Shown here one piece after another: positions 1-486 of a stretch of DNA of 486 nucleotides. Origin of the DNA: Escherichia coli. GTDB taxonomy: Bacteria; Pseudomonadota; Gammaproteobacteria; Enterobacterales; Enterobacteriaceae. Position numbers and translations under genes: made by a program. Positions within the stretch are counted from its first letter, which is position 1. Every line of letters begins with the position of its first letter. The DNA lies in assembly GCF_003334765.1 (NCBI RefSeq), contig NZ_QOWT01000121.1; one strand, written 5' to 3'. The notes beneath the pieces are model-generated. The model made no database searches. It saw nothing but the letters and a program-made list of their open reading frames with translations, and was not told the DNA's origin.

Positions 1-486
1 GAAGCTGCGCAGCGTTTCCCGGTGCAGGCGGTCGCGGGTGTACTCCACCAGCGGTGTGTCGCCGAGTTTCATGCCTGCCAGGTAACCGCTGCCGTAGGTC
101 AGCCATTCCACGGCGGGCAGGCTGTCCGGTATACAGCGGTTCGCCAGCCCCTGCGCGTTGTACGCATGTCTGGTCTCATGCTGCCAGAGCAGTGCTTCCG
201 TCTGCGGGTGATGCACCGTCTGACGCTCACCGGTCAGCCGGCCTTTCTCATCATACCTGTAATGCACCGCCACCCGGTGCCCTTCGCTGATATGGCTGAT
301 GTCTGTCAGCCAGCCACGTTCGTCATACTGCCACCGCTCTGCGGTTTCACCCTTCACGGTGCGGTGCGTGAGGCGGTCTGCTTCGTCATAGTGCCAGTGG
401 GTGACCAGACCCTCATCCTCGCTGCGGATAAGTTTGCCGGTCAGGTCGTGGTGATAACGCTGTGTGCGGCCGTCAAAGCCGGTTTC
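1..486 (-). CDS. Rhs-family YD-repeat protein, internal core fragment (partial at both ends; polymorphic toxin scaffold)
   Basis: Seen in sequence: reverse-complement frame with codons at +484-486 down to +1-3 has no stop in 162 codons, while the other two minus frames hit stops within the first 4 and 15 codons (tga). Translation: ETGFDGRTQRYHHDLTGKLIRSEDEGLVTHWHYDEADRLTHRTVKGETAERWQYDERGWLTDISHISEGHRVAVHYRYDEKGRLTGERQTVHHPQTEALLWQHETRHAYNAQGLANRCIPDSLPAVEWLTYGSGYLAGMKLGDTPLVEYTRDRLHRETLRSF. It contains repeated Y-D-x-x-G-R/W-L motifs (WQYDERGWL, YRYDEKGRL, HWHYDEADRL, RYHHDLTGKL) at the spacing expected of Rhs/YD repeats, and codon choice is enterobacterial (ctg, ggc, cgc, acc). Established knowledge: the peptide closely resembles the conserved core of E. 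coli-type Rhs proteins as I recall them. I cannot tell which paralog or species from memory, so no gene symbol is given. Confidence 0.9.
187..270 (-). repeat. YD-repeat unit (peptide-level), near-canonical YRYDEKGRLTGE
   Basis: Residues 73-100, AVHYRYDEKGRLTGERQTVHHPQTEALL. This is the best match in the window to the R-Y-x-Y-D-x-x-G-R-L consensus. The YD dipeptide is encoded at +250-255 (atcata on +), 72 nt from the neighbouring YD. Boundaries are approximate. Confidence 0.7.
271..336 (-). repeat. YD-repeat unit (peptide-level), WQYDERGWL
   Basis: Residues 51-72, RWQYDERGWLTDISHISEGHRV. The YD dipeptide is encoded at +322-327 (gtcata on +), 63 nt from the YD of the neighbouring unit. Boundaries are approximate. 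Confidence 0.65.
337..408 (-). repeat. YD-repeat unit (peptide-level), HWHYDEADRL
   Basis: Residues 27-50, LVTHWHYDEADRLTHRTVKGETAE. The YD dipeptide is encoded at +385-390 (gtcata on + = tatgac on -). Boundaries are approximate. Confidence 0.6.
409..477 (-). repeat. YD-repeat unit (peptide-level), variant RYHHD...LTGKL
   Basis: Residues 4-26 of the minus-strand translation, FDGRTQRYHHDLTGKLIRSEDEG. Fits the Rhs repeat consensus G-x(3)-R-Y-x-Y-D-x(2)-G-R-L with the second Tyr replaced by His. Boundaries are approximate. Confidence 0.6.

Follow-up and report, generated by a model that had tools for sequence, protein, structure and literature searches.

An rhsA/rhsB core segment of Escherichia coli and the possible origin of its G+C-rich composition

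A short stretch of 486 nucleotides from an E. coli contig, referred to below as the window, has a G+C content of 62.3% (303 of 486 nt), in a species whose genome is about 51% G+C. The question raised by this locus is where such a composition comes from, and whether it belongs to the window, to the gene that contains it or to the history of that gene. The contrast in G+C content between core and tip of E. coli Rhs genes has been textbook knowledge since Hill and colleagues studied these genes in the 1990s, and is routinely used for delimiting the two parts. A first-pass annotation, made from the letters of the window, had taken it for Rhs core, had described a strong G+C bias at third codon positions, and had connected the high G+C content with horizontal origin. 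Here the identity of the window, its composition relative to K-12 flanking genes and the composition of Rhs cores in other hosts were determined, and the explanations for the G+C excess were weighed against each other.

Identity of the window and features within it

All 486 nt of the window were 100% identical to both rhsA and rhsB in the K-12 loci, which were fetched with 40 kb around each, and the window spans codons 667-828 (CDS nt 1999-2484) of both genes, inside the YD-repeat core. Since rhsA and rhsB are identical over the window, it can be assigned to neither gene over the other. By megablast, the window was found in 3,882 of 5,426 complete E. coli genomes, with a median of 3 copies per genome and up to 7 places, roughly 12,700 copies in all. 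In K-12, three places matched at megablast sensitivity, and the 100% matches were annotated as rhsA or rhsB. Two of six reading frames are free of stops, minus-strand frame 0 and plus-strand frame 0, which is its codon-aligned antisense, and the product of minus-strand frame 0 is a YD-repeat protein (ETGFDGRTQRYHHDLTGKLIRSEDEG...WHYDEADRL...WQYDERGWL...YRYDEKGRL...). The peptide matched the NCBIfam model NF041261 (RHS_core) at model positions 675-836 of 1261 (E 2e-101, 341 bits), and for the full RhsA and RhsB proteins the scores across residues 1-1247 were 2647 and 2644 bits, where the curated cut-off is 2000. TIGR01643 gave an E value of 7.6e-4 in the window and 5e-41 in full RhsA, and TIGR03696, the Rhs-associated core domain, matched residues 1170-1247 of the parent proteins, outside the window. 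The RHS_core model ends at residue 1247 of RhsA/RhsB, where the G+C content falls; the motif that closes the core (residues 1238-1247) reads PVTNTDPLGL in rhsA and PISDIDPLGL in rhsB, and is followed by the variable C-terminal tip. The window holds 162 codons from the interior of the conserved YD-repeat core of K-12 rhsA/rhsB, on the minus strand, and its first-pass identification as Rhs core is borne out by the identity to the K-12 genes and by the scores of the parent proteins.

By homology, the core would form the beta-cage shell around the C-terminal toxin of T6SS-type Rhs effectors, and the window would be a part of the cage wall. The nearest solved structures by sequence were T6SS Rhs effectors, namely Tse5 of Pseudomonas aeruginosa (PDB 8cp6), whose residues 577-731 are collinear with window residues 1-160 (E 1e-20), Tse15 (8uxt) and a Salmonella bongori Rhs core (8qjd). 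These effectors are distant in sequence from the window, and the likeness to their cage is one of sequence. Within 20 kb of K-12 rhsA or rhsB the annotation shows no vgrG, hcp or PAAR gene, so that linkage to a T6SS was not found around these two genes; two more distant Rhs homologues sit directly after vgrG.

RhsA and RhsB belong to the rhsABCF subfamily of Hill and co-workers and, by our assignment, to clade I of Jackson et al. 2009. They show no difference from the window, and both have the PxxxxDPxGL core end, an A+T-rich tip and a small gene downstream (yibA after rhsA, yhhH after rhsB). RhsC and RhsD have the same architecture, with cores of 61.3% and 63.3% GC (GC3 72% and 75%) and tips of 41% and 37%; nucleotide identity in the window region was 93.6% for rhsC and 79.8% for rhsD, which is of the rhsDE subfamily. 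The rhsA and rhsB cores were 98.9% identical, differing at 42 of 3,741 nt. The window lies in an identical tract of 1,214 nt (CDS nt 1894-3107), and the 42 differences are concentrated at the very 5′ end and in the final ~640 nt ahead of the tip. This clustering suggests gene conversion of the mid-core. Judged by copy number and identity, these genes share the Rhs-element trait of several near-identical cores per genome. 'Rearrangement hot spot' is the recombination property that has been ascribed to such near-identical core copies, and its history is recounted in Jackson et al. 2009 (PMC2935791).

The features of the window are collected in Table 1. The 15-nt direct repeat reflects, at the DNA level, the motifs WQYDE and WHYDE of adjacent YD repeats. 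The Chi octamer stands apart from the question of composition; two Chi sites lie in the rhsA core (20045-20052 and 21845-21852 in the fetched locus), both oriented opposite to five Chi sites in 36 kb of flanking chromosome. The plus-strand open frame was considered as an overlapping gene and rejected as a by-product of codon bias. It is open because the coding strand, with its GC3-rich codon use, has no TTA, CTA or TCA codons, and 12% of 162-codon windows in the rhsA core were open in the codon-aligned antisense frame, versus 3.8% in host genes. Searching both strands of the window against Rfam gave, as the best result, a sub-threshold chance match to archaeal sR32 (16 bits versus a gathering score of 40).

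Table 1. Features of the 486-nt window, with positions counted from its first letter
Feature	Position	Strand	Remarks
Rhs core coding segment, codons 667-828 of rhsA/rhsB	1..486	-	Frame 0; GC 62.3%, GC3 74.7%
YD (RHS) repeat, peptide residues 14-46	349..447	-	Pfam PF05593 RHS_repeat, E 5.3e-5
TIGR01643 YD_repeat_2x, peptide residues 13-50		-	NCBIfam match overlapping the first YD repeat
YD (RHS) repeat, peptide residues 54-88	223..327	-	Pfam PF05593 RHS_repeat, E 4.4e-4
15-nt direct repeat TTCGTCATA(C/G)TGCCA	319-333 and 382-396		Spacing 63 nt (21 codons)
Chi octamer GCTGGTGG	45..52	- (rhs coding strand)	1 match vs 0.04 expected in shuffles
Antisense open frame, codon-aligned, all 162 codons	1..486	+	By-product, no gene

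Composition of the window, the core and the tips

Read in minus-strand frame 0, the window has GC1, GC2 and GC3 values of 0.679, 0.444 and 0.747. Outside the Rhs elements, the flanks in K-12 had a G+C content of 52.5% at the rhsA locus and 51.7% at the rhsB locus, and no flanking 486-nt window reached at least 62.3% GC in either (0 of 627 and 0 of 658; 0 of 1,285 in total). The 59 flanking host genes averaged 53.2±4.2% GC (maximum 60.9%) and 59.3±6.9% GC3, with mean GC1 of 0.601 and GC2 of 0.404, and the window was higher in both of these positions as well. On the scale of this scatter among genes, the window exceeds the mean by about 2.2 sd, for GC and for GC3. The nikC and nikB genes beside rhsB (24661-26435 in the fetched locus) had GC3 of 72-76% and GC of 58-61%, with nikC at 75.5% GC3. 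Since these genes match the Rhs core in GC3, GC3 alone is no proof of foreign origin. Taken singly, a window is only moderately extreme; what makes the excess striking is its persistence and its sharp limits.

The whole 3,741-nt core of rhsA and rhsB had 61.6-61.7% GC and 72% GC3, while the tips after PxxxxDPxGL had 40.2% GC in rhsA and 36.6% in rhsB, with GC3 of 25-28%. Downstream of the window, the core/tip junction follows after 1.2 kb. A fit with a single change point placed the drop in G+C content at CDS nt 3683-3693, some 50 nt short of the end of PxxxxDPxGL, with 62% GC before it and 36-42% after it. This point coincides with the start of dense differences between rhsA and rhsB, which diverge from CDS nt ~3647 onward. 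Genes located 3′ of the tips (yibA, yibG and yhhH) had 32-34% GC. All four K-12 cores examined (rhsA, rhsB, rhsC and rhsD) were within 61.3-63.3% GC, and their tips within 37-41%. High G+C content characterises the Escherichia/Citrobacter-type Rhs lineage over its entire 3.7-kb core, and is not specific to the window.

These values agree with what had been read from the letters of the window. The hand count of 303 in 486 nt was exact, and the bias at third codon positions is present with the minus strand as the coding strand. A lower host background, which could only be supposed from within the window, was found at 52% GC in the flanks, rather than at a level of about 62% that would have made the composition unremarkable. 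The expected shift to AT-richer tips at the core/tip boundary was likewise observed, and the statement that enterobacterial Rhs cores are much more GC-rich than their hosts holds for this core (61.6% versus 52% in the flanks).

With a G+C-rich core, an A+T-rich core-extension with A+T-rich downstream genes, and flanks of 52% GC, rhsA and rhsB match the description of a genetic composite. Jackson et al. 2009 (PMC2935791) described the conserved core as G+C-rich and the core-extension as A+T-rich, and attributed the composite structure to recombination that replaces tips with alternatives acquired laterally. Base composition is not treated in Poole et al. 2011 (PMC3150448). For a clade II rhs of Serratia marcescens (SMA1610), a core of 67.7% GC and a tip of 46.4% were reported (Jackson et al. 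2009, PMC2935791). SMA1610 is like rhsA/rhsB in having a core far more G+C-rich than its tip, but it belongs to a different clade, lives in a host of higher G+C content and carries a long downstream array of dissociated tips, an arrangement generally absent from E. coli clade I loci (Jackson et al., PMC2935791). Downstream of K-12 rhsA (14884-17458 in the fetched locus), we observed two Rhs core-end fragments that are orphaned and pseudogenised; yibG (sel1 repeat) separates them, and an Imm57 immunity gene with a frameshift lies downstream. A 500-nt window within one of these fragments (17001-17500) formed a peak of 58% GC amid sequence of 29-40% GC, and such a peak is the signature that Jackson et al. 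(PMC2935791) use to delimit dissociated tips.

The contributions of amino-acid content and codon choice to the excess were separated by back-translating the window peptide 5,000 times with the codon frequencies of flanking genes. Under host codons, 56.1±1.3% GC and 57.6±3.6% GC3 were expected, versus 62.3% and 74.7% observed (z = 4.7 for GC and z = 4.6 for GC3), and none of 5,000 draws reached the observed values. The peptide is rich in Arg, Gly, Thr, Asp, His and Glu, and this content demands G+C. An excess of about 9 points over neighbouring genes is thus divided: amino-acid content accounts for about 3 points and synonymous choice for about 6, or about one third and two thirds. Of the Arg codons, 35% in the window (6 of 17) and 41% in the core (50 of 122) were rare ones (CGG, CGA, AGA and AGG), compared to 20% in flanking genes, and the codon choice of the core shows no optimisation for E. 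coli. By the compositional measures used to recognize acquired DNA, the window stands out in its GC3 (z = 4.6), in a share of rare Arg codons that is roughly doubled, and in having no equal among the flanking windows.

Rhs cores across hosts

Homologous segments in Buttiauxella, Citrobacter amalonaticus (four copies), C. youngae, Lelliottia and E. albertii had 59-63% GC, with flanks of 51-56%, and the whole core exceeded its flank by 5 to 11 points in this enteric set. By codon alignment, the segments from Buttiauxella, Citrobacter, Lelliottia and E. albertii shared 58-88% amino acid identity with the window. In Burkholderia, Paraburkholderia, Cupriavidus and Variovorax, which carry distant Rhs genes, cores of 60-68% were found with flanks of 61-68% (difference of -2 to +3 points), and other homologues from a representative search had cores of 57-67% with flanks of 50-62% (+3 to +6.5). 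Three cores came from low-GC contexts: one of 44.0% with flanks of 35-39% (+5 to +9), one of 35.1% with a flank of 39.0% (-4), and one of 36.2% on a contig without usable flank. Over 19 loci, core composition was related to flank composition by core GC = 0.44 x flank GC + 37.7 (r = 0.76), and the FYMINK/GARP ratio ranged from 0.24 to 2.28 across the family. The Rhs family follows host composition, over a range of 35-68% GC. Since cores in low-GC contexts reach 35-44% GC and amino-acid content varies widely, the fold does not impose 62% GC. The enteric cores carry a composition that is native to hosts of 60-68% GC, as the classical reading of horizontal origin predicts.

The sources of this comparison differ in what they cover. 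Related loci taken from genome contigs consisted of close enterics and four apparent contaminant contigs, and their range of host G+C content was too narrow for regression alone. The plasmid collection consisted of GC-rich Burkholderiales hosts and mislabelled E. coli replicons, and it served only the high-GC end. Protein homologues of the 162-aa peptide were almost only short fragments from Escherichia, Salmonella and Citrobacter, with no hosts of differing G+C content among them, and were excluded from the host comparison.

Several records met during these searches are noted here in their own right. E. coli-type Rhs fragments (83-100% amino acid identity) were found on contigs of 433-3,462 nt in four unrelated assemblies, an Oscillospiraceae MAG, a Lentisphaerae MAG, Streptomyces griseoloalbus and Frankia tisae (coverage 0.8), and are probably enterobacterial contamination or mis-binning. 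Among records filed as plasmids, E. coli-type rhs cores occurred in 'E. coli plasmids' of 1.0-1.3 Mb and in 'Klebsiella plasmids' of 2-5 kb that consist almost wholly of rhsB, and these look like mis-assembled or mislabelled chromosomal fragments. One metagenomic low-GC Rhs gene (521-4501 on a 4.5-kb contig) had a core of 36% GC (GC3 25%) and a tip of 46% after PVQQVDPKGL. A reversed contrast of this kind, here in a single case, is as expected if tips share a pool of intermediate composition.

Origin of the core composition

The best explanation, which we hold to be likely, is that the window is rhsA/rhsB core and that its composition is a relic of a foreign gene pool. The core lineage would have obtained its composition in a pool of about 60-68% GC, and would then have entered enteric bacteria by horizontal transfer. 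Tips and immunity genes (37-41% GC) would come from a separate, AT-richer and exchangeable pool, and C-terminal displacement would have joined them to the core at the PxxxxDPxGL junction. On Escherichia branches, the G+C content of the core would be off equilibrium and drifting slowly downward. This history is read from composition, and it is consistent with the comparison across hosts, which is no proof of it. The first-pass suggestion of horizontal origin fits the atypical composition and codon use of the core, but it is not proven by them, and about a third of the excess it was meant to explain comes from amino-acid content.

Two further observations bear on the proposed decay. When four-fold degenerate changes over the whole core were polarised by outgroup and parsimony, S>W changes outnumbered W>S changes in E. 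albertii (23:6 and 14:5), rhsC (11:3) and rhsA (10:4, 8:4 and 9:8), on few sites and with a method that inflates common-to-rare changes; this S>W excess on Escherichia branches is suggestive of slow decay. Identity at four-fold sites between the E. coli window and enteric orthologues was 52-62% (73% for E. albertii), where 31-36% is expected by chance, and 52-62% corresponds to roughly one substitution per site. GC4 of the enteric orthologous segments nevertheless stays at 66-83%, and at 70-83% in the enteric hosts of 50-56% GC whose segments are 52-62% identical at these sites. Retention of GC4 despite this divergence would mean either that the lineages diverged before entry into their hosts, or that some force maintains the bias. 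Wang, Zhao and Hill are reported to have argued in 1998 that the divergence predates entry into these hosts.

The second of these possibilities is the alternative to be taken most seriously, although we consider it unlikely: that high GC3 is actively maintained within enteric genomes, by GC-biased conversion among the 3-7 near-identical cores or by selection on GC3. It agrees with the concerted evolution of the rhsA and rhsB cores, with their 42 differences in 3,741 nt and the 1,214-nt identical tract around the window, with a median of 3 core copies per genome (up to 7), with GC4 of 70-83% across enteric orthologues about one substitution per four-fold site apart, and with an excess over flanks that is largest in multi-copy hosts, E. 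coli and C. amalonaticus. However, the polarised changes on Escherichia branches lean toward S>W and not W>S, and cores of GC-rich hosts show no excess over their flanks, in a comparison that covered composition. That the GC3 excess is an equilibrium reached specifically by GC-biased conversion among concertedly evolving multicopy cores, and no fading relic, appears doubtful to us, more so than maintenance in general.

The remaining explanations dispense with both a foreign pool and active maintenance. It is very improbable that the amino acids of the YD-repeat cage force about 62% GC in any host. GC1 and GC2 of the window (0.679 and 0.444) do exceed the host-gene means (0.601 and 0.404), amino-acid content alone raises the expected GC to 56.1%, and cores lie 0-5 points above their flanks in most sampled hosts; but amino acids explain about 3 of 9 points, GC3 is 4.6 sd above the expectation from host codons (0 of 5,000 draws), homologous cores in low-GC contexts have 35-44% GC, and FYMINK/GARP ratios range from 0.24 to 2.28 across family members. 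The back-translation and the low-GC cores contradict amino-acid content as the sole cause. Extremely improbable is translational selection, by which the gene would be highly expressed and its GC3 bias would reflect the codons that E. coli prefers: codons such as CTG, GGC, ACC, GAC, CAC and CAG are used and are also common in E. coli, but so are GGG, ACA, ACG, CTC and CCC used, and the share of rare Arg codons, in the window (6 of 17) as in the core (50 of 122), is about twice the 20% seen in flanking genes. As for ordinary local fluctuation in a genome of about 51% GC, a single window that is only about 2.2 sd high, next to nikB/nikC with GC3 of 72-76%, might seem to permit it; we give it next to no credence, as none of 1,285 flanking windows reaches 62.3%, the excess persists through 3.7 kb up to a defined protein motif, where it stops, and it recurs in four paralogues and in orthologues of four other genera.

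We return to the relic of a foreign pool, and to what the analysis adds to it. The observation is confirmed and its interpretation is supported: the data fit the classical reading, in which a core from a GC-richer pool was joined to AT-richer exchangeable tips, without proving it. As the G+C-rich core has been a known feature since the 1990s, the result changes little in how Rhs elements are seen. Its additions are quantitative, namely the partition of the excess into one third from amino acids and two thirds from synonymous choice, the family range of 35-68% GC, and the likeness of enteric cores to hosts of 60-68% GC. They sharpen, without settling, the question of whether the composition is a relic or is maintained. 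If biased conversion among multicopy cores were the true cause, Rhs cores would offer a natural reporter, inside the genome itself, of such conversion in bacteria.
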